Of a stretch of DNA of 64,000 nt, positions 1 through 57,309 are shown one piece after another. The notes under the pieces were generated by a model. That model saw only the letters and a program-made list of their open reading frames with translations, did not search any database and had not been told where the DNA came from. The stretch spans positions 43,641 to 107,640 of IMG/VR virus record IMGVR_UViG_3300026189_000003; one strand, given 5' to 3'. A program made the position numbers and the translations under genes. Source of the stretch: a virus. Within the stretch, counting starts at the first letter, position 1; every line of letters begins with the position of its first letter.

Positions 1-3000
1 AAATTCAGTTCCATATGGAACAACAACTGTTCTGTTGGCTTCAGTTGATTTATATAAAGTTGCACTGATGCCACCTTCGGTAGGTACTTCATTTACTGTT
101 ACAAAATTCTTTGCAACAAATGATGTGTCAGTAACATGAGGTACTACTGTTCTATAAAAATTACCTTCGTATCTAACTAACTGATCTTTTTCTAATGTTT
201 GATTTGGCACGTAAGCACCAACTTTTGATGGTACTCCGCCAACAGATATTGGAACTTGCACACCGTTTGGATCACTTACTGTTGTTTTAAAATGACTTCT
301 GCTAATATCATAACCTCTAACAGCAAATCCTTTTTCTGTCTTTTCAACTATAACGCCACTGTATGCACTATTTTGTATACTTGGACTAGCATGAGTCACG
401 TGTGAAATGTTATTATCTGGAATGTAAACACTTGTTCTAGTAGAATTAGGTGAGTATGATTCAGTTTGTGCTCTATAACTTGCAAAGTCAACGAATGCTC
501 CTTGTTTATGAGCTAACTGCGGTTGTACATTTCTTAAAATACCACCATATAAATCTGTAATAGATTTGTTTTCATTAATTAATCTCTGAGTAACATATTG
601 CTGATAACCAGTACCACTGAACGTATTAGTTCCTACTGTTTCTCTATCAACATAAACATTATTGTTTGGTCGTTTACCTGTATTGAAATCGTATACACTT
701 GTAGTATTGATTTTTGCTACTCTAGAATTCAATGTATCAAAAAACTTTTCATAATATTCTGCAGGTTTCAGTATTGACATTACTGCTGTTGTACCAAAAG
801 AACTAGCACTGTTAATATAGTATGCTCTTTCACTTGGTGCATTGTCACCAATTTTCCAATTCTTTTTAGCTTCATCGACACTTGGATTTCTATCAACTAA
901 TCCTAAAGTAAGCGGATCAATAACTTTACCTGATGTGTCAACAGGTACATAACTGCTAAAGCCTTCGTGCCTGTAAATATTTTCTTGATTTGTATAACTT
1001 AAATCTAATAAGTTAGCACGTGAACCTTCTCTAATAATACCTTTCTCGATATCATTAATTAATAATGCTCTTGCAGAAGATTGCTTCCAGTTATAGTTCC
1101 TATCCCACCAATGAGGCTTAATTGAGAAGCCTAACATTTCCCATGGATGCGTATCTAGTTTGTCTGAACCATAAAACTTTTTATAAATTCCTCTCCAGTG
1201 TCCTGCTGATCTATCTCCAAATAAATCTTGCGTACTACTCCAGTTCCATGTTTTCCAATCATTTTGATCGTAGCCATTATTTTCAAATATATCTACTTGG
1301 TTGTTAACTGCCCATCTGTGAACTTGTGGCGTAATAACATCTGTGTATTCGCTGTATGAATAATCTTTTTTATTAAAGTAATTGTCAACAGTACTATTGT
1401 ATGAAATATCAGGAACATAATCTGGGTCCATGAATCTATTTTCAATATCGTTGTAAATTCTTTTTTCAATTTCTAGCAATGCTCTATCACGATCATCATT
1501 AAATTTAAGTGTTAATGATCCATCATGTCCTTCAATAAATGTTTTTGTTCCTGATGAATAACTTGCATCACTAACTTCTCTAGGTAAAAATGCATTCGTC
1601 ATTCCTAGCTTGGCTGGTGTTGACGGTATCCATGCAGGTTGTTTTGCAGAGAAGTGATATATTTTAATTACATCATTTACATCTGGCTTAGATGCTCCTA
1701 CGAATATTATTCTAGTTCCTGATGAATTTTCAATAACGTAATCGTTATTCATTGTTAATAATTTGTCGTTATTATAAATGTATAATGATTTTATATCTTT
1801 ATCGTCACGTGGGTTGAATGCATAGCTTATGTCTAATCCAGGTTCACCTATCATTTCTAAAATATCTTGATAGTTTTGTACTGCTTGACTTTGGCTTTGT
1901 GTATTGTTCCAAGTTTTATTTGCACTTGTGATTGTAATAGTTTCTATTTGTGCATTCTTACCGTAATTGGCCATTAAGCTGTAAGCCCATTTCTCACTTA
2001 CTTTTTTATTTGTATTCAATGATTCTAAAACAGTATCAACTAATTTTTGATCAGTCCAGCTTGTAATATCATTGTCTATAGATACTTGTGTTACTTTTTG
2101 TAAAAATTTATTTTTAAATCTAATATAGTCGTCTTGTGCTAGTCTTGTTGACTTAATTACATTTCTATCATTGCTGTTAACATGAGTTAAGAATTTTACT
2201 AAAGGTGCACTGTGTTGTAATATTTCTTGTCCTTGTTCGTTTTCTTTTTTCGTATCTCTATACGTATTATTTCCTAAAGGTTTTCCAGTTATATCTTCCT
2301 GTCTAGAAATAGCTGAACTCATATGTGATAATAAATCACTGTATGAATATTCATCAACTGGATTGTTCAATGCATTATGTGATAAGTTTTTTGGTAACTG
2401 GAATCTTGCTTTCTTTAAGTCTTTAGTTTCAAAGCTATCCCATACTACAAAAACATGGTATCCTTTTGTAACATCAGCTGTCATTTTAATTGTTTGATTT
2501 TTTTCAATGTTGTAATCAACTTTGAATTCTTGTTCAACATTGTTTACATAAACTTTAACTTTAGAATCATCAGCAATTAACGATTCTAAAACAAAAGTAT
2601 TTGCACTTGTATAATCATCAACATTAAAGTTTTGTTCTAAAAGCTGTTTAGATTTTTGTTTCGGTTGAACCCATTCTGTTTCATACACAGATGAGATAGA
2701 ATCAACTAATGTTGAGTTCGCATTATCTACAACTGTTAACTTACCACCCATTCCTGCATGAGTACCACAGTAATAATATACTGTATCTGGTGTGTTTACA
2801 TCTGGTGTAAACTCAACTGTTCTTGCTGTTGCTTTATCATACTCTGCTCCATAAAAAACAGTTTCTGAAACTTGTATGTCATTAATAAAGTATTTTACTT
2901 TAGTTGAATATCTTGTACCACTGCCATGTGTACCGTCGGCTGTTGTGCTTAATGCAAATGGATGTGATCCAGCTGAGTAACCTTTACTTGACAAACTTGA

Positions 3001-10442: not shown

Positions 10443-10481
10443 TAATAATAATAAGGTAAGACAATAATAGTATAAACTCTT

Positions 10482-10509
10482 AAAAAGGCGCTTCGGCGCC
10501 TTTTTTTTT
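10482..10509 (+). terminator. Intrinsic terminator
   Basis: AAAAA GGCGC TTCG GCGCC T9. Confidence 0.9.
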
Positions 10510-10615
10510 ACTTATTAACAGATATATTTCTGTTGGTGAAATCGGTTAACAGGAGTGTTAACCAAAATCAATGTGTTTAAATATTAAACACACAATTTAG
10601 TTAGGAGGTCCAATT

Positions 10616-10849
10616 ATGGATATTATTACTAAAATTAAATCATGGGCGTCAGCTTTAGCAGATGTCGGTGTATCACTTATAGCACTAGGTATAGTTCTAG
10701 AAGTGCTATTTGGAGGACAGGGCATTCCGTTCTGGCCTAACATTTCAGTAATCGGAAATGTACAATCAATTATCGCAGGTTTCTCAGCACAAGGTTTAGT
10801 TGGGTTAGTTGCAGTTTGGGTATTGTATCACATATACAAATCTAAATAA
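10616..10849 (+). CDS. Small membrane protein (two hydrophobic segments)
   Basis: AGGAGG SD; hydrophobic 77-aa sequence; followed by a terminator. Confidence 0.8.
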   Translation: MDIITKIKSWASALADVGVSLIALGIVLEVLFGGQGIPFWPNISVIGNVQSIIAGFSAQGLVGLVAVWVLYHIYKSK

Positions 10850-10858
10850 AGACCTCAT

Positions 10859-10883
10859 AAAAAGGTCGCTTCGGCGGCCTTTT
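10859..10883 (+). terminator. Intrinsic terminator
   Basis: AAAAA GGTCGC TTCG GCGGCC TTTT. Confidence 0.75.
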
Positions 10884-10906
10884 ACTTTCACACAAAAGGA
10901 GAAAAT

Positions 10907-11029
10907 ATGAATTTTTTCAAAAATAAATGGACATGGGTTGGCATTGCAGTTGTTTTAGTTGCCGCATGGCTTATGATCGGCGGAGACATTCCAATGATAT
11001 CTGGTGGTGAAACACCGGCCGCAGAATAA
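10907..11029 (+). CDS. 40-aa single-TM peptide (below ORF-track cutoff)
   Basis: AAGGAG SD; MNFFKNKWTWVGIAVVLVAAWLMIGGDIPMISGGETPAAE; followed by a terminator. Confidence 0.75.
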   Translation: MNFFKNKWTWVGIAVVLVAAWLMIGGDIPMISGGETPAAE

Positions 11030-11050
11030 TAAAAATCTAAAGTTTAAATT

Positions 11051-11076
11051 AAGGCGTCTTCATGGCGCCTTTTTTT
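11051..11076 (+). terminator. Intrinsic terminator between convergent genes
   Basis: AAGGCGTC...GGCGCC followed by a T-tract. Confidence 0.75.
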
Positions 11077-21122: not shown

Positions 21123-22313
21123 TTATCGCAATGCTTCTATGTCAAAAGTGTGATCTTTAACTTTGTTAAGCCAGTATGACCATTCGCTGTTTCTGATTAA
21201 ATTGTGTTCGTATTCAAAAACATTTGATAAATTGATTAATGTATTTTGATCTATGTCTTCTAGAATAGAAGTTCTAGTTATATCACCTATGCAATATTTT
21301 ACTTCAACGTTTTCTCGAATATGTTTTATAACTTTTAACACATCACTTGTATTATAATTATCGAGTATATCGTAGTTTCCATCTTGTAGATCTAAAGTGG
21401 TCCAAATTCTACCATTGTATTTTTGATCAAATGTTTGTACAAACTCTTTGTAATTACCTTCATATGTCTTTATTAATAATTCTGTAAAAATTAATGCAGT
21501 TATTGAAACATCATAAAATGTAATTGTTTTAATATCTTCATAAACATTTAATATTTTTTTTAAACTTTCAACACCGTTAGCAACTGAGATATAGTTACTA
21601 TGTTTTTTTGCAAACTGTGATTTTCTTGGTGAAGTAGACATTGGATAGTAATAAGAATGTGGATGCAATTTTTCATATGATAGCATAGAACTTATTTGTT
21701 CAGGTATATCATAATAAACAAATTTTTTGATATTTCTTTCATCACCATTGAACGGTCTAATTTTATAGTCTTTTTTCAGTAGCTCACTGATAACATGACC
21801 TCCAAATTTTAATCTATCAACAGCAAGTGGTGGACGTGTATGATCTGCTTTGACCCACAACGGAGTATAATCATGATGCCAATTTTCTTCTGCTCTAACA
21901 ATATTAGTTAAGTTGTTATGAGATTTAGAATTAAAGTCAGGCTTGCCTACTTGTACCCATTGATCTACATTTATAATAAAATGTTGTGGATGTAAATGAT
22001 AATATCTTTCTTTACGATCTAAAATATGACCAATCAATGCATAGTTTGGTATATCGTCAATCATGCTTTTTAAAAAGTTGTTATCAATATGTGCAAAAAA
22101 GAAAATGCCTTCTTGTATTACTATTGCATACTTTGTTTCCAAATATTCTAACTGTTGATTAATATTGTCAATGTCACAGACAAATATTTTATCTTCATCA
22201 AAATCGTGTATTAAGTTTTGATAAAAATAATCTCGTATACTGTCTAACAGTCCTTTATTCTTTAAAATAATTAAACTAAAATTATTGAGTATTGCTTTGG
22301 TGCTTGACTGCAT
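21123..22313 (-). CDS. Hypothetical protein, 396 aa
   Basis: Long ORF overlapping the resolvase 3' end; no motif recognised with confidence. Confidence 0.7.
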   Translation of the reverse strand: MQSSTKAILNNFSLIILKNKGLLDSIRDYFYQNLIHDFDEDKIFVCDIDNINQQLEYLETKYAIVIQEGIFFFAHIDNNFLKSMIDDIPNYALIGHILDRKERYYHLHPQHFIINVDQWVQVGKPDFNSKSHNNLTNIVRAEENWHHDYTPLWVKADHTRPPLAVDRLKFGGHVISELLKKDYKIRPFNGDERNIKKFVYYDIPEQISSMLSYEKLHPHSYYYPMSTSPRKSQFAKKHSNYISVANGVESLKKILNVYEDIKTITFYDVSITALIFTELLIKTYEGNYKEFVQTFDQKYNGRIWTTLDLQDGNYDILDNYNTSDVLKVIKHIRENVEVKYCIGDITRTSILEDIDQNTLINLSNVFEYEHNLIRNSEWSYWLNKVKDHTFDIEALR

Positions 22314-22785
22314 CTTTATTATTTTCCCAGAACTGTTTATATTCTACATAACAATAGTTTTTGTAAGTTTTAGAATGTTTAAGTTCTTGCCACTGTGCTG
22401 GATCCCATAAAACAAATTCGCCTTGCCTAGATATTTTAACACACAGTAACCATTTGTCATTTGCTTCGCAACTTTCAGATGCTTGTTTGATCCATTCATC
22501 TAGCTGTTTAACTTCTCCACCTAGTGCTAATTGATGCCAACGAAACTCTCCGTAATTCTTTGCTTCAATTACTAGCAAAGGAAAACTGTCAGGCGGGATT
22601 ATGTCTCCTTTAAATCCTCTTGTTTGGCTTTCAGATAATGTTTCTGTTCTTACAATATTTTGTCCTCCTACAAAAGCACCCGAGTATGGAACTCTTGTAA
22701 ATGATTCTTGATATAGTTCAGTAAGAAAGTTTGCTACATCTCTTTCGTATGTTTTTCCTTTGTTTTTAGATTTAGTTCCACTCAT
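22282..22785 (-). CDS. Holliday junction resolvase-like PD-(D/E)xK nuclease
   Basis: SKNKGKTYERDVA...GDII...IEAKN. Confidence 0.8.
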   Translation of the reverse strand: MSGTKSKNKGKTYERDVANFLTELYQESFTRVPYSGAFVGGQNIVRTETLSESQTRGFKGDIIPPDSFPLLVIEAKNYGEFRWHQLALGGEVKQLDEWIKQASESCEANDKWLLCVKISRQGEFVLWDPAQWQELKHSKTYKNYCYVEYKQFWENNKDAVKHQSNTQ

Positions 22786-23117
22786 TTTAATTTCCATTCA
22801 TATCCAATAGTTAATCCTATATTTTCTTTATCGTACTCATATGCAGGTGCTATAAACCATCCTCTATCTGTGTATCTCATAAAAGGTACAACGTCTCCTC
22901 CGCTGTATCCAGTTGCTAGACCTATTTCTAATTTTACATACTTGTCTATATCAAATTCTTTTCCTGCGTATATACTAATTGATTCTTCACTATTATAAAA
23001 CGCACCAGTTATCGTGTTATCTATTTGACATCTTGCATGAGGATGAATACTATTATAATTTCCTTCTAGTCCTATGTGCATTGATACTGCCATTAATATT
23101 GATAAACAGGTATTCAT
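22782..23117 (-). CDS. Small predicted beta-barrel protein (PagP-like pattern)
   Basis: Alternating beta strands, GAFYNS...SIYAG...GLATGY, aromatic near the C-terminus. Confidence 0.5.
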   Translation of the reverse strand: MNTCLSILMAVSMHIGLEGNYNSIHPHARCQIDNTITGAFYNSEESISIYAGKEFDIDKYVKLEIGLATGYSGGDVVPFMRYTDRGWFIAPAYEYDKENIGLTIGYEWKLK

Positions 23118-23771
23118 TTATTTAAACTGATTTTCTTTTCTTTTGCCTTTAGATATTTTACCTTTTCTATTAGCTTTAATTAGCCTTCGAAGATCCTTCC
23201 ATGATTTGAATTTTCTATCATATGCAACCATTCCAGGAAAGGTACGTCGAAATGCTTCTTCAATGTCTTCGTCTATTTTTTTCAAAACATCTTTTTCTGG
23301 GTATGTGCCCAGATTGTCCCAATCACAAATGTCCCAGTTGTTAATATCTTTCCAGTCACCGTCGATTATAATATTACTTCTTTCCCAGTCCATGTGTGCA
23401 TGAGGTGATGTTTCTTTATAATTTTTTAAACAAAACTTTTTATACATATCTCTAAATTCAATTGGATCTACGGTTCTTCTGAAAAATCCAGTTTGGAACA
23501 TTTCTAAAACAGTTACTCCGGGAATTTCTTTGTACTCGCACCATACTTCCGTTTCACTATCAGCTTGGTAGTTTAATAGATAGCCAGGCTTTACTTCATT
23601 AAGTAATCTCACGTGATAGTTTAACCAACCGACGTGTTTGACTCTATATCCTTGAGTCCATTCTTTCCTGTATCTGTTTCCAACCTTGTAAGTTTTTTGA
23701 ACTTTGTTAGGGTTGGTACCTGTTTTGACTAGTATTTTTACTTCTTCGTAGTTCTTAATTTCGTCGCTCAT
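23118..23771 (-). CDS. Protein-kinase-like / phosphotransferase fold protein
   Basis: HMDWERSNIII...ICDWD resembles the HxDxxxxN...DFG catalytic motifs. Confidence 0.55.
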   Translation of the reverse strand: MSDEIKNYEEVKILVKTGTNPNKVQKTYKVGNRYRKEWTQGYRVKHVGWLNYHVRLLNEVKPGYLLNYQADSETEVWCEYKEIPGVTVLEMFQTGFFRRTVDPIEFRDMYKKFCLKNYKETSPHAHMDWERSNIIIDGDWKDINNWDICDWDNLGTYPEKDVLKKIDEDIEEAFRRTFPGMVAYDRKFKSWKDLRRLIKANRKGKISKGKRKENQFK

Positions 23772-23847
23772 TAAAAAAAATTTCCTTTAGATTTAATGCT
23801 ATTACTTAATATAATACATTTTTTTAAAAAAAGCAATGGAAAAAAGG

Positions 23848-23877
23848 TTGACTTTAGATATATGAGTCCCGTATTGT
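23848..23877 (+). promoter_or_regulatory. Sigma70-type promoter pointing into a non-coding region
   Basis: AAAGG-TTGACT-18-TATTGT; same AAAGGTTGACT context as the promoter at 63312. Confidence 0.6.
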
Positions 23878-23883
23878 TACACA

Positions 23884-24240
23884 CTATAGGCACTCTTTAG
23901 GCAGAACAGGCAAAACTTAGGCAATATAGCATCTCTACAAGGCGCGAACTACTCTGTAACAACAGCGGCGAATCGCATGATGCAAGGCAAGTGTTAACTC
24001 AGGCACAAATGATGACAGCTCTGCTAGAAACAGATATGCAACTGTCAGCTTACACGTAAACAGCCAACTTTGGGTATGTGTAGGTTCCGTTGGATGAAGC
24101 AGGAATTATAGGGGTATCGGCCAACCGCCTCTGCAATGTTCCTCAAGTTGGTATGACGATCTCTGGTAATATATCAAAGGTCCCTTCGCCCGGCAACGGG
24201 TGAAGTATGGCCAAATCCAGGTAATAGGTATAAAGAACAC
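23884..24240 (+). ncRNA. Candidate large structured ncRNA of unrecognised class
   Basis: No ORF of 60 aa or more; GC-enriched; many stems, GCAA-capped 9-bp hairpin, two candidate pseudoknots, 5' AGGCA repeats; boundaries approximate. Confidence 0.7.
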
Positions 24241-24349
24241 ATACAACTATCACTTTCTAATACGATGTAATTAAAATTTTTGCTTTTAGAAAACTAACGC
24301 AGAGCGTTGTACAATAGAGCTTATGCTCTATTCCTACGTAGAAACAATC

Positions 24350-24580
24350 TTAGACAATTGGTATCATTGATCCTTTGAACTTTTCAACATTATCTTTTAT
24401 AAACTCCTGTATGACTTTTTTATCTTCATAGGTCAACAGCCAGGCCTGATCGATATTGATTGATCCTCTCATGTACCAACATATTTCAGTGATGTTCTTT
24501 TTAATGTCTAGTGATTCAGTGGCCAACTCGTCAAAGTAGGTTGCGATCTCAGACGGCGAGCTTGTGATTAAGAAGTTACG
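24350..24580 (-). CDS. gp51-like baseplate/tail assembly domain, probably expressed by -1 frameshift from the gp26-like gene
   Basis: 76-codon frame RNFLITSSPSEIATYFDELATESLDIKKNITEICWYMRGSINIDQAWLLTYEDKKVIQEFIKDNVEKFKGSMIPIV; begins at T TTT TTC. Confidence 0.7.
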   Translation of the reverse strand, partial: RNFLITSSPSEIATYFDELATESLDIKKNITEICWYMRGSINIDQAWLLTYEDKKVIQEFIKDNVEKFKGSMIPIV

Positions 24581-25407
24581 AAAAAATCCGCAGGATCCAA
24601 CCTAACTTCAGTTTCAAATTCTTTTTCAGTGTCTGGACAGATAAGAGTTTGTTTAGTATTAGTGCCTACGGTGTTTAGCTCGTTAATTTTTGCATCAATT
24701 TTTTTAGTGTCGTGTGTGGTCGAATTTTCTAAAAACTCTTTGATGTGTTTTGAATCAATTACTGCATCGCCTTCTGGCGTTACAATTTTTTGTATACTCT
24801 CAACAGTGACGTCAACGTTCAAGTTAGCTAATTTTACAAACATGGATTTGAACTGTTTGGCCTGTGCGCCATCAATGTCTTCGATGTTTTTAATTGCTTT
24901 GGCTTGATCGTATGCTGTAAGATTGATTCTTGTTTGTGTTGAGTAGTTGAAAGGTTTAACATAAACAGAACAACCATTATCTAGTACAACACAATTGGTT
25001 TCAGGTATTTCTGTGACCTGTTCCAGAATGTTGTTAAGGTTGATAGAATATGTGGTAGTTTTGTTTGAATGTGGTGATTTAATTTTTGTTTCCATAAATT
25101 CACCATACGTGGCCATTCTTATTGCAATCAGCAACAAGTCCACATCACACACTGGTAAGTTTATTGGATCTTTGACATTAGGTGCACAACTGCCTACAAC
25201 TTGTACAACTGCATCACCATTTAATAGTGCATCCGGATTACGCATGATAACTTCATCTTTACCAGTCATAGCAAACACAGGTATCTCTCCTGTTACAGCC
25301 GAATCCACAACTTCATTGAACTTTCCACGTGACGGGAGTTTCACGTATAATTTTGGAGCTCTATAAAACTGTTTTAACGGATTTTGATTTTTATCTTTTT
25401 GTTCCAT
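24568..25407 (-). CDS. gp26: Baseplate hub assembly chaperone, gp26-like
   Basis: NPLKQFYRAPKLYVKLPSRG, MTGKDE..MRNPDALLNG, DVDLLLIAIRMATYG, C-terminal DPADFF. Confidence 0.8.
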   Translation of the reverse strand: MEQKDKNQNPLKQFYRAPKLYVKLPSRGKFNEVVDSAVTGEIPVFAMTGKDEVIMRNPDALLNGDAVVQVVGSCAPNVKDPINLPVCDVDLLLIAIRMATYGEFMETKIKSPHSNKTTTYSINLNNILEQVTEIPETNCVVLDNGCSVYVKPFNYSTQTRINLTAYDQAKAIKNIEDIDGAQAKQFKSMFVKLANLNVDVTVESIQKIVTPEGDAVIDSKHIKEFLENSTTHDTKKIDAKINELNTVGTNTKQTLICPDTEKEFETEVRLDPADFFVTS

Positions 25408-27921: not shown

Positions 27922-29643
27922 ATGAGTTGGCGAAAATATTTTAAAGAATACGGTACAGAAGCTGGAACAAACTCTCCAATAGGGAGTACTTCTACATCAG
28001 CAAATAATACCGCTCACAGCAAGTATAACACTTGGTTACCAGAAGTGTATGCTGGTATGCCGAACAGACGTGAAAGATACTATCAATATGACATGATGGA
28101 TCTTGACACAGAAATTAATGCGGCGATGGATACTATTGCTGAATTTTGTTCTCAAATAGACGAAGAAACAGGTTCACCTTTTAGTATCAAATACAAAGAT
28201 GAGCCAACTGACACTGAATCAGGTTTGTTAACTGACACATTAAATCAGTGGAACAAAATTAATCAATGGCAAAAAAGATGCTTCAAGATGGTACGAAACA
28301 CTATCAAGTACGGAGATCAAATGTTTGTCAGAGATCCACAAACATACAAATGGTATTGGGTAGATCCAACTACTGTTGAAAGAATTGTTGTTAATGAAGG
28401 TAAAGGTAAAAAACCTGAAGCATACTTCATTAAAAATTTAGATCTTAATGTTAAAAATTTAAATATCACATCAGATGCTTATTCACATTTTAATTCACCG
28501 TTGAGCGGTGGTAATCAAGCATTAGGTTCACCAATGTCAGGTGGACAATCAAACAGAGCATATCAACCAACAGGACAATCAGCCGCAGGCGGATATGGCG
28601 GAACAAGATTTCAAAGAGATGCAACTGTGTATCCAATTGATGCATCACACGTTGTACATTTAAGTTTAACAGAAGGCATGGATAGATTTTGGCCTTTTGG
28701 AATTAGTTTATTAGAACCTATTTTTAAAACTTTCAAACAAAAAGAACTTTTAGAAGATTCAATAATCATTTACAGAGTACAAAGAGCACCTGAAAGACGT
28801 GTGTTCTATATTGACGTAGGTAATATGCCAACATCAAAAGCAATGTCATTCATTGAAAGAGTTAAAAACGAAATACACCAAAGAAGAATTCCAAACCAAA
28901 CAGGTGGTGGTTCAAATGTTATGGATGCAACTTACAATCCATTGTCAATGATAGAAGACTATTTCTTTGCTCAAACGGCAGAGGGCAGAGGATCTAAAGT
29001 TGAAACACTGCCAGGTGGAACACAACTAGGTGAAATAGATGATTTAAGATATTTTAATGATAAGCTAATGAAAGGTTTAAGAGTACCAAGTGCGTACTTA
29101 CCAAGTTCACCAAACGATCCGCAAACTGCATTCACAGATGGTAGAGTTGGTACAGCTTACATTCAAGAATTTAGATTTACGAAGTTCTGTAAAAGAATAC
29201 AAAACTTCATACAACCTAGTGTTGATAGAGAATTTAAAATGTTCTTAAAACACAGAGGTATTGAAATTGATTCAGGTATGTTTGAATTACAATTTAATGA
29301 ACCACAAAACTTTGGCAAGTACAGACAAATTGAATTAGATACACAGCTAGTTAATATCTTTAACCAAGTACAACAAGTACCTTACATTAGTAAGAGATTT
29401 GCTCTTAAACGTTTCTTAAAAATGAGTGAAGATGAAATTTATGAGAATCAAAGATTATGGGCTGAAGAAAATAAATCTCAAATGCCAGGTGAAGAAGCTG
29501 TTGCAGATGATTTAGGTGCAGTAGGCGGAGCACCAATGCCAGCAAGTGATATGCCAACATCAGCAGATGATGTAAGTCCAGATGACGATGGACAGACTTC
29601 ACCTATACCAGGTGATCAATCAGATAACACAGAAGAAGCTTAA
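27922..29643 (+). CDS. gp20: Portal vertex protein
   Basis: LLEDSIIIYRVQRAPERRVFYIDVGNMP, EDYFF, VETLPGG..LGEIDDLRYF. Confidence 0.97.
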   Translation: MSWRKYFKEYGTEAGTNSPIGSTSTSANNTAHSKYNTWLPEVYAGMPNRRERYYQYDMMDLDTEINAAMDTIAEFCSQIDEETGSPFSIKYKDEPTDTESGLLTDTLNQWNKINQWQKRCFKMVRNTIKYGDQMFVRDPQTYKWYWVDPTTVERIVVNEGKGKKPEAYFIKNLDLNVKNLNITSDAYSHFNSPLSGGNQALGSPMSGGQSNRAYQPTGQSAAGGYGGTRFQRDATVYPIDASHVVHLSLTEGMDRFWPFGISLLEPIFKTFKQKELLEDSIIIYRVQRAPERRVFYIDVGNMPTSKAMSFIERVKNEIHQRRIPNQTGGGSNVMDATYNPLSMIEDYFFAQTAEGRGSKVETLPGGTQLGEIDDLRYFNDKLMKGLRVPSAYLPSSPNDPQTAFTDGRVGTAYIQEFRFTKFCKRIQNFIQPSVDREFKMFLKHRGIEIDSGMFELQFNEPQNFGKYRQIELDTQLVNIFNQVQQVPYISKRFALKRFLKMSEDEIYENQRLWAEENKSQMPGEEAVADDLGAVGGAPMPASDMPTSADDVSPDDDGQTSPIPGDQSDNTEEA

Positions 29644-29647
29644 TATA

Positions 29648-29851
29648 TTAATGTATTGTTTGGTTAGTAGGCTCTACTACTACATCATCATTAATACGAT
29701 CCATTAGGTATTGGGCAACAACTTTTAGATCAGCAATGGTATTTCTTTCTTCTTCGTCAAGGTCTTTACGATCTTCCATTATAACAATGTAATTGTTAAT
29801 AGCATCAAGCTCAGCTTGGAAAAGTTCTTTTACACTTACAATTTTTTCCAT
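29648..29851 (-). CDS. Hypothetical protein
   Basis: 67-aa ORF filling the gap, with AAAGG upstream and a minus-strand TAAATA near 29876. Confidence 0.55.
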   Translation of the reverse strand: MEKIVSVKELFQAELDAINNYIVIMEDRKDLDEEERNTIADLKVVAQYLMDRINDDVVVEPTNQTIH

Positions 29852-29895
29852 TACTTCGTAACCTTTCTTTAAGTTATTTACTAAATAATATTATC

Positions 29896-30096
29896 ATGCG
29901 TATAAAAGAACTAAAAGAAGCCTATTTTCCAGATCAAGACAAGTATTCGTCTGCTCAAATAGGTTCATCAAGAAAAACTCGACTTACTTTAAAACATTTA
30001 AATAAGCTGAGAAAAGTAAGAGAAATACGTTTACAAGATCAACAAGAAAATGCTGAATTTGTATCACGTATGTATAATGTTAACCAAGCTGTTTAA
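29896..30096 (+). CDS. Small prohead core protein (gp67/68 position)
   Basis: Between portal and core genes; RKTRLTLKHLNKLRK; TAAATA upstream. Confidence 0.65.
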   Translation: MRIKELKEAYFPDQDKYSSAQIGSSRKTRLTLKHLNKLRKVREIRLQDQQENAEFVSRMYNVNQAV

Positions 30097-30245
30097 GACC
30101 TAAAAGATCTTTATAAACAGCTTATATTACGGTTTTTTCAAAAAAAACCGCAATATCCCACCGTTTGAGAGAAGAAATTTTCAATTTCTGTTAAATACAA
30201 GCAATTAAAATAGTAGTACGTGCTAATTTATAAGGAGATATCGAT

Positions 30246-56108: not shown

Positions 56109-56127
56109 AAAAATCCAAAAAAAACAC

Positions 56128-56241
56128 TTGACTTTTATCTAAATACTAAATATACTAGTGTTTAATGTTAAAAATATTAAACATTAACAGGCAACAACAT
56201 AGGCTAATAAAGGCACATATAGGCACAAGGAGGCTCAAATT
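56128..56241 (+). promoter_or_regulatory. gp32 promoter/leader: sigma70 plus late boxes, palindrome and phased AGGC(A/T) repeats
   Basis: TTGACT-17-TATACT; TAAATA twice; inverted repeat 56156-56186; AGGCW at 56189, 56201, 56211, 56221, 56231. Confidence 0.75.
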
Positions 56242-57309
56242 ATGGCAACACTAGCAGAAATCCGTGCGAAACTGGCGGAACAAGAAAACAAATCCTCGTC
56301 AAGAGGTTCAGTATCGGATAACGCAATTTATCCGTTCTGGAATATTCCGGAAGGAACAACTTCAACAATTAGATTTTTACCAGATGCAGATAAAAGTAAT
56401 ACTTTTTTCTGGGTAGAAAGAGCAATGATCAAATTACCTTTTCCAGGTGTTAAAGGTCAAGCTGATACTAAACCAACTATTGTACAAGTACCGTGTATGG
56501 AAATGTGGAATGAACCATGTCAAGTACTAGCGGAAGTAAGAACTTGGTTTAAAGATAAATCATTAGAAGATATGGGAAGAAAATATTGGAAGAAACGTTC
56601 TTATATTTTTAATGGTTTTGTAGTTAATTCAACATTAGATGAAGATACTGTTCCTGAAAATCCAATTAGAAGATTTGTAATTAATCCTTCTATCTTTAAT
56701 ATTATCAGATCAGCATTGATGAATCCAGATATGGAAGATCTACCAACTGATTTAGAATCAGGAAGAGATTTCAAATTAACGAAAACTCAAAAAGGTGGAT
56801 ATGCTGACTATTCAACATCAACTTGGAGTTTCAAAGCAAGATCAATTAGTGAATCAGAAAGAGGAGCAATTGATCAATATGGTTTACATAATTTAAGTGA
56901 CTATATGCCTAAGAAACCATCTCAAGAAGAACAAAAAATTATTCAAGAGATGTTTAAAGCATCAGTTGATGGAGAACTATATGATCCAGATAGGTTTGGT
57001 CAATACTATAAACCAGCTGGATTACAGACTTCGGGTTCTACAAACAGTGCACCAGCAACAGCATCAGCGACTGCAACTGCACCAGTAACTGAAACTGCGA
57101 CAGCTACACCAGTAGCACAGGCGCCAGTAACAGCTACACCGGTAGTAGAAGCTCAAGCACCAGTAGTAGAAAATACTCCTGAACCTGCAAAAGTAGAAGT
57201 AGCCGAGACAGTAACGGCAACTGCTACTGAATCAACTTCAGCTACAGGAAGCAAAGTATCCGCTGACGATATTTTGTCAATGATCAGAAGTAGACAAGCA
57301 AACAAATAG
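56242..57309 (+). CDS. gp32: Single-stranded DNA-binding protein
   Basis: IRFLPD, C.E....PC, YWKKRSY, G.DF.LTK...GGYADYSTS; upstream of uvsX. Confidence 0.9.
   Translation: MATLAEIRAKLAEQENKSSSRGSVSDNAIYPFWNIPEGTTSTIRFLPDADKSNTFFWVERAMIKLPFPGVKGQADTKPTIVQVPCMEMWNEPCQVLAEVRTWFKDKSLEDMGRKYWKKRSYIFNGFVVNSTLDEDTVPENPIRRFVINPSIFNIIRSALMNPDMEDLPTDLESGRDFKLTKTQKGGYADYSTSTWSFKARSISESERGAIDQYGLHNLSDYMPKKPSQEEQKIIQEMFKASVDGELYDPDRFGQYYKPAGLQTSGSTNSAPATASATATAPVTETATATPVAQAPVTATPVVEAQAPVVENTPEPAKVEVAETVTATATESTSATGSKVSADDILSMIRSRQANK

Follow-up and report, generated by a model that had tools for sequence, protein, structure and literature searches.

A pseudoknotted RNA gene of giant T4-related marine phages and its probable kinship with the Methylobacterium-1 RNA

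The Methylobacterium-1 RNA, catalogued in Rfam as RF01712, was described by Weinberg et al. in 2010 (PMC2864571) as a 103-nt motif of 'three hairpins', found largely in marine metagenomes and in Methylobacterium sp. 4-46, and was left without an assigned function; our literature search found no later functional work on it. The operator of T4 gene 32 consists of a folded 5' element, repeated words and a ribosome-binding site, with gp32 nucleating at the pseudoknot and spreading cooperatively over the repeats (PMC535899). Here we compare with both of these systems a locus in a 107-kb IMG/VR record of a T4-related phage. A sequence-only reading of a 64,000-nt stretch of this record (the window, to which all positions refer) had proposed a stand-alone, pseudoknotted non-coding RNA on the plus strand, and this proposal is borne out by conservation, compensatory changes, invariant G-U pairs and a conserved promoter. 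Positions 23884-24230 of the plus strand are almost certainly the gene for a structured non-coding RNA of ~350 nt, predicted to be transcribed as a unit of its own.

The RNA gene, its promoter and its surroundings

The gene lies in an interval bounded by a 217-aa gene on the minus strand, which ends at 23771, and by a small minus-strand ORF at 24350-24526. Between 23771 and 24350 the longest ORF on either strand has at most 46 aa and none reaches 60 aa, so that the stretch is ORF-free as had been claimed. The further statement that it is the only long stretch of this kind in the window is roughly right; two other gaps of ~600 nt without long ORFs (10443-11074 and 29644-30245) each carry ORFs of 66-77 aa. 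The enrichment in GC likewise holds, with a content of 0.46-0.48 at 23900-24200 against 0.25-0.40 in the flanks.

The promoter read by eye as TTGACT-18-TATTGT was recovered by a promoter scan at 23848-23877 (plus strand) and is of the host (sigma-70) type. It comprises an A-tract and -35 box (GGTTGACT) at 23836-23853 and, 18 nt past the -35 box, the -10 box TATTGT at 23872-23877. All 58 relatives with sufficient upstream sequence have GGTTGAC preceded by an A-tract, and 48 of the 58 have a TAnnnT -10 box at equal spacing, the remainder having CATTAT-type boxes; the spacers are 17-18 nt long. We place the start of the RNA ~7 nt past the -10 box. The promoter/terminator scan found no intrinsic terminator on the plus strand, and the 3' end given here is the point where conservation stops. 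Downstream, a terminator-like hairpin with a T-run at 24296-24308 (AACGC...GCGTT) is read on the minus strand, where it serves the convergent minus-strand genes; it is kept in several relatives, and its plus-strand reading has no U-run. The word TCTAATAC at 24256-24263, ~30 nt past the RNA, occurs at a similar place in several relatives as CTAATACGAT or CTAATACAAT, and shows no enrichment in the window (5 observed, 3.2 expected).

The neighbours of the RNA gene in the window are the gene for a T4-type baseplate hub protein (24568-25407) and that for a PDDEXK_15 protein (22282-22797), annotated in PHROGs as 'RusA-like Holliday junction resolvase'; the portal gene lies in the same region (27922-29643). 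Across the loci the RNA is flanked by the hub gene on one side and the PDDEXK/RusA-like gene on the other, pointing either way depending on the clade, and what follows its 3' end differs from locus to locus, being the hub gene in antisense at some and unrelated ORFs at others. Its surroundings include gp46/47 and the PDDEXK/RusA-like genes, and its stable association is with the replication/recombination module. This is seen from the distant members of the family described below: in L205, a metagenome contig of 70% GC (143-3000), the RNA stands between genes for a RusA resolvase and a Toprim-DnaB primase-helicase, and an integrase and an HNH nuclease are encoded on the contig L173. The adjacency to a resolvase persists in L205 despite a nuclease family other than the marine PDDEXK_15.

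A fold supported by compensatory change

The check for covariation in related phages that the sequence-only reading had proposed was carried out on a structure that counts 63 pairs and 11 helices and takes in both pseudoknots. In an alignment of 25 sequences (A2) these positions are 94% paired, against 35-42% with slid partners, and 36 of the pairs show compensatory change; none of 500 shuffles reached the observed values. In a second alignment of 49 distinct core sequences (A3) the core is 97.5% paired, with compensatory change in 28 of its 38 pairs. Folding energies of the single sequence are no better than those of shuffles (z = -0.93 on the plus and +1.52 on the minus strand) and are uninformative, so the support for the fold is comparative rather than thermodynamic. 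The assignment of the RNA to the plus strand, made earlier from G-U pairs, also holds, as these pairs are invariant across the sequences and would be A-C on the opposite strand.

The predicted transcript begins with an unpaired leader (23888-23923) that bears four AGGCA words at a spacing of 10-12 nt. It is followed by a 5' domain (23929-23983), overlooked in the sequence-only reading, whose architecture differs among clades. In A2 its helix P1 (23929-33/23979-83) is 100% paired with two covarying pairs, P2 (23944-47/23973-76) 95% with three, and P3 (23952-56/23963-67) 82% with two. A linker conserved in alignments A1 and A2 (23984-24012) then carries AGGCA at 23985-89 and 24001-05, AGUGUUAA and AAAUGAU, and resembles the GGUGUUUAAA loop of RF01712.

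The core, compact and held together by the two pseudoknots, opens with two hairpins that had been seen by eye and are now backed by covariation. P4, the pairing TGACAG/CTGTCA (24013-18/24042-47), has four covarying pairs and a conserved loop GGCUCUG...GCAAC, and P5, CTTACACGTA/TATGTGTAGG (24049-58/24075-84), is 96.6% paired with covariation in ten of its ten pairs across the 49-sequence core. The long-range contact proposed for the P5 loop stands as pseudoknot A, in which CCAACTT (24064-70) pairs with AAGTTGG (24145-51); all seven base pairs are formed throughout (100% paired) and six covary. Read by eye, divergent members and the RF01712 seeds keep this contact too, in sequences that bear no relation to those of the window. 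A loop-loop contact had likewise been proposed and holds as GTTGG (24089-93) with CCAAC (24121-25) in the P8 loop. This pseudoknot B is 100% paired, and its two compensatory changes occur in a single lineage, that of L036 (GUCGU/ACGAC). P8 itself, AGGGG/CCTCT (24110-14/24128-32), has a 13-nt loop, is 100% paired and has two covarying pairs, in agreement with the original proposal. It is enclosed by P7 (GGAAT 24102-06/GTTCC 24138-42; 100% paired, four covarying pairs), a helix missed by eye and first proposed by RNAalifold.

Several of the smaller pairings suggested earlier were lost in this comparison: TTCC/GGAA, the inner stem CGG/CCG, CTGG/CCAG and GGTC/GGCC are 63% paired, beneath every shuffle, and the GGAA of the first of them pairs instead with GTTCC, as GGAAT, in P7. 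Towards the 3' end, P9 (GATCT 24158-62/AGGTC 24178-82), with a loop that begins UGGUAAU, is tentative; it is 77% paired with four covarying pairs and breaks down in a clade with a 30-nt insertion, so that it is partly supported only. The hairpin P10 (CTTCGCCC/GGGTGAAG, 24184-24205), recognised from the start, is 98% paired with three covarying pairs and, as read by eye, recurs in high-GC members and in RF01712 seeds. The GNRA character given to its loop is not conserved, the relatives having UUAC, UAAC, UAGC or GAGA in place of GCAA.

Two direct heptamers, TGGTAAT (24164-70) and AGGTAAT (24219-25), alter together between clades. UGGUAAU and AGGUAAU become UAAUAGU twice or GUAUGAU twice, the trinucleotides adjacent on their 5' side change in parallel, and the change is concerted and non-complementary. 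A small peptide read from the ATG at 24009 was also considered; its frame has 16 codons in two clades and is shifted or extended in others. The protein-coding reading was rejected, the substitutions in the stems being compensatory and not synonymous.

Relatives and kinship with the Methylobacterium-1 RNA

Relatives of the locus were not found with the hub protein or the 217-aa neighbour as query, and were found with the portal protein. By portal, the closest cultured relatives are the jumbo phages PA5oct (54% identity), Phosso and Atu_ph07, and related contigs reach 243 and 328 kb. The portal-anchored search gave 80 loci, 21 of which carry the element (nhmmer, query 23800-24300) in either orientation relative to the portal gene. 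The exact pattern CCGTTGGATGA-N-GGCCAACC occurs in 35 viral and 86 metagenome contigs, and ~59 distinct full-length copies were gathered from marine viral and metagenome contigs. The RNA is one that a clade of giant marine phages has maintained. When the region was compared by blastn with 50,697 phage records, no match was obtained. A scan of 185,579 species genomes with the pattern gave 55 matches, about as many as expected by chance, none of them confirmed by nhmmer or a covariance model, and the RNA is thus not found in cellular reference genomes.

A covariance model of the core (R1, 144 positions) extends the family further. It detects freshwater-type copies (L217, L183 and L198) at 75-98 bits and copies of high GC content (55-70%; L173, L205 and L238) at 23-30 bits, L173 scoring 28, as well as weak copies at the syntenic place in a group with 55-58% portal identity; it found nothing significant in the genomes of RaK2 and Atu_ph07. 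Read by eye, the freshwater and high-GC copies retain the 7-bp pairing of the P5 loop with the segment past P7, in unrelated sequences, and each has a P10 of the CUUCGCC type. Blastn of a high-GC member against plasmids and phages returned no match.

It is through one of these divergent members that the RNA can be linked to a catalogued family. Rfam 15 gave no gathering-level match anywhere in the window and no plausible family at E<=10 for 23700-24450. ARAGORN found no tRNA or tmRNA, and no Rfam match to RNase P or to group I or II introns was obtained, as the sequence-only reading had anticipated, nor any to known ribozymes or riboswitches. Its description of the RNA as being of unrecognised class therefore holds for the window copy, which no Rfam model detects, and fails for its divergent homologue L173, which passes the gathering score of RF01712. 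The cmscan check suggested earlier thus gave nothing for the window copy and 45.7 bits for L173 (gathering score 40). With RF01712 specifically, the window copy has no match at E<=10, and L205, L238, L183 and L217 gave no score. In L173 the RF01712 and R1 matches overlap on the same strand, and the cmscan alignment shows the correspondence of P4 and P5. In the window, too, P4 and P5 are followed by the ACCGU(U/A)G of RF01712, with UCCGUUGG coming after P5, and the Rfam model ends at ACCGU(U/A)G, where the window's CCGUUGG starts. The first hairpin of RF01712, with its GGUGUUUAAA-type loop, has no counterpart as a conserved helix, the window having AGUGUUAA in its unpaired linker flanked by AGGCA.

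We also read by eye, as opposed to scoring with a model, the seeds of RF01712 with their flanks, of which the published alignment shows five. All five have a 7-9-bp complement to the P5 loop, and all five have P8. In four of them the P8 loop is able to pair back with the CCGU(U/A)G region, and in the fifth the register seems shifted. Equivalents of pseudoknot B are GUAGU/AUUAC and GUUGU/GCAAC. The partner strand of P7 is present wherever it was looked for, and a CUUCACC...GGUGAAG hairpin occurs in both seeds read that far. One seed has the P4 loop words GGCUCUG...GCAAC. On the strength of the intermediate L173 and of this reading of the published alignment, the window RNA is very probably related to the Methylobacterium-1 RNA, as a divergent and enlarged form, and the RF01712 model appears to cover only the first three hairpins of a larger fold. 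Searches for RF01712 itself found none in 151 genomes of one alphaproteobacterial order and three others and none in the group with 55-58% portal identity, and a pattern derived from its seeds gave 15 matches in IMG/VR, all of them chance.

The best R1 match in the whole genome of PA5oct (21 bits, E = 0.03) lies precisely between the RusA-like and hub genes, at 75796-75969 of NC_071039 (15797-15970 of our locus L256). It stands behind a perfect TTGACA-17-TATAAT promoter, and pairings compatible with the pseudoknots are readable by eye. This segment is a probable compact homologue of the RNA. It overlaps the annotated ORFs gp340 and gp341, of 38-43 aa, which may be a mis-annotated RNA gene; the PA5oct paper places its four ncRNAs in other parts of the genome and reports none here. 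If real, a homologue in a cultured Pseudomonas phage would make the RNA family experimentally tractable.

The AGGCW repeats and candidate roles of the RNA

The 5' leader of nearly all relatives has 2-4 AGGCW words, and the window RNA has six AGGCA words, the four of the leader and the two of the linker. The 107-kb record has just one other AGGCW cluster in non-coding sequence, at 56189-56235 (plus strand), where five such words stand between a 5' hairpin and the Shine-Dalgarno sequence and ATG of a gene for a gp32-like single-strand-DNA-binding protein (56242-57309, plus strand). This protein scores 26.1 bits with the Pfam gp32 model (cut-off 26.8), is 51% identical to its PA5oct homologue and is followed by a RecA/UvsX gene. 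The region upstream of the gene (56120-56241) has a TTGACT-17-TATACT promoter of its own, and the hairpin of the leader is TTAATGTT/AACATTAA. The last of the five words overlaps the Shine-Dalgarno sequence, and the same layout, with a 5' hairpin, 3-5 repeats and the Shine-Dalgarno sequence, is found in five other genomes. Like the T4 gene 32-type operator, the gp32 leader (56150-56241) has a fold, repeats and a ribosome-binding site in cis, and it looks like a T4-style autoregulatory operator with a different repeat word. Repeats and a fold are present in the RNA at 23884-24230 as well, whereas a conserved ORF and a downstream gene 32 are absent.

The repeats were then sought as clusters of three AGGCW words 4-10 nt apart on both strands of eight related records (~1 Mb). 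Such clusters are confined to the RNA leader, in three of the records, and to the gp32 leader, in six; nine of nine are on the sense strand, and the reversed pattern gave no match in the same records. The corresponding leaders of PA5oct, that of gp32 and that of the candidate RNA, lack AGGCW and are rich in UAAA-type A/U words, an observation that weakly supports co-variation of the two leaders.

The best explanation overall, put forward tentatively, is that of a trans-acting RNA. Its single-stranded AGGCW arms would bind a factor that also binds the repeats of the gp32 leader, and the earlier guess of a decoy or protein-binding RNA gains some support from this shared word. By analogy with the T4 gene 32 operator the factor would most likely be gp32 itself, the RNA would imitate the operator and so titrate or recruit the single-strand-binding protein (SSB), and the pseudoknotted core would be a nucleation or stability element or the binder of a second partner. 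This link to gp32 is the more doubtful part of the proposal. T4 gp32 has a site size of 7 nt, which the AGGCW period of 10-11 nt does not match, and T4 gp32 is not known to require an RNA in trans, which counts against a gp32-linked mechanism. The AGGCW repeats could alternatively be DNA operators or ribosome-related words. It is a decidedly unlikely extension that the Methylobacterium-1 RNA and its jumbo-phage branch together form a widespread superfamily of trans-acting mimics of the gp32 operator, which would bind SSB through AGGCW arms nucleated by the double-pseudoknot core and so set the level of free SSB or load it at a nearby origin. If true, no other RNA would have been described before as a sponge or loader for a replication SSB, and a 16-year-old orphan RNA motif would have a function.

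The core is kept in far relatives, both those of 55-70% GC and the RF01712 seeds, that have few or no AGGCW words, and what the core does therefore probably predates, and does not depend on, any link to gp32. In this regard it is possible, if on balance unlikely, that the RNA acts in trans through its core and has no relation to gp32. It would then be a ribozyme, or would serve as decoy or scaffold to a conserved factor of host or phage, for instance a nuclease, the resolvase, RNA polymerase, the ribosome or a defence protein, and the AGGCW arms would be a clade-specific add-on. Such a role would agree with the invariant unpaired words CCGUUGGAUGA, GGCCAACCGC and GGCUCUG...GCAAC and the knotted fold shared by very distant members, with the continued presence of a junction-resolving nuclease gene though its family changes (PDDEXK_15 or RusA), and with the two 3' heptamers, which change in concert as though read by one partner. 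However, the RNA matches no known ribozyme or protein-binding family, its sequence names neither a cleavage site nor a partner, and no co-varying protein gene was identified.

The location in the replication/recombination module speaks to some extent for an origin function, the first guess of the sequence-only reading. An early transcript would form a persistent RNA-DNA hybrid and prime the leading strand, with the fold controlling the hybrid and the AGGCW words on the displaced strand loading gp32. The early-type promoter, the absence of a plus-strand terminator, the invariable placement in that module, where in L205 a Toprim-DnaB primase-helicase gene adjoins, and the repeat period of ~10.5 bp are all in its favour, and the T4 origin oriE sits among baseplate genes with early transcripts. 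Yet a pair of interlocked pseudoknots, kept by compensatory change in members of 33% to 70% GC, far exceeds what known R-loop primers need, the gene is inverted in place between clades, and no A/T-rich unwinding element lies 3' of the RNA. The cumulative GC skew has its minimum at 23.6-24.6 kb, but gene orientation switches at that very place and the minimum is uninformative. We consider an origin RNA very unlikely.

That the RNA is a cis-regulatory leader of the neighbouring resolvase-type gene, of an attenuator or riboswitch-like kind, is highly improbable. At ~11 loci (of the L014, L087 and L105 types) it does lie ~170 nt upstream of the PDDEXK gene and co-directional with it, and Fremin et al. 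(2023; PMC10690425) list candidate RNAs 'upstream of RusA' among 10,006 candidates, which can be counted for such a role. Nevertheless, in the window and at most loci the RNA is divergent from the resolvase-type gene, and its either-way orientation and varying downstream neighbours argue against a leader, as do its own promoter and 350-nt fold. It is just as improbable that the AGGCW words are double-stranded DNA operators by which a phage repressor shuts off two early promoters, the RNA fold being incidental; although at both loci the repeats directly follow sigma-70-type promoters and have a spacing of about one helical turn, two more AGGCA stand ~100 nt into the transcript in a conserved single-stranded linker, nine of nine clusters are sense-oriented, the last word of the gp32 leader overlaps the Shine-Dalgarno sequence, and the covarying fold would be left unexplained.

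Among known systems, the sponges CsrB/RsmZ and 6S RNA are abundant stand-alone RNAs with several short unpaired words that also occur in target mRNA leaders. They differ from the window RNA, for which a sponge mechanism is a conjecture, in their words and partners and in having no knotted core. The primer and origin RNAs, ColE1 RNA II and the T4 oriF, oriG and oriE transcripts, are promoter-driven and untranslated and act in replication, the fold of RNA II being important for its function; they have no homology to the window RNA. GOLLD (RF01998) and ROOL (RF03087) are likewise large, ornate, phage-borne orphan RNAs, and the window RNA matches neither of these Rfam models. The T4 gene 32 operator (PMC535899; PMC3014915) shares with it a folded or pseudoknotted element beside an unstructured run of a repeated word, a set of words which the phage's own gp32 leader has in identical form. 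It differs in acting in cis, in ending in a ribosome-binding site and in its UUAAA/UAAA words, whereas the window RNA is separate and untranslated, uses AGGCW words, has a much larger fold and would bind gp32 only by analogy.

The closest likeness is to the Methylobacterium-1 RNA. Both have a GAUG-type junction, P4, a long P5 and ACCGU(U/A)G in this order, and the seed flanks, by eye, continue into P7, P8, P10 and both pseudoknots. In place of the first hairpin of the motif the window RNA has a linker with AGGCA words, and it adds a repeat-bearing 5' leader and the P1-P3 domain. The published motif is without pseudoknots, phage context or promoter. If this kinship is correct, Methylobacterium-1, an orphan since 2010, would gain a large divergent branch in giant T4-related marine phages, whose RNA is about three times the size of the catalogued motif and has two pseudoknots, an early-type promoter and a place in a replication/recombination module. 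The Rfam model could be extended so that the jumbo-phage copies become recognised, and a repeated word confined in eight related records, apart from the RNA, to the control region of an SSB gene would offer the motif a first functional lead.
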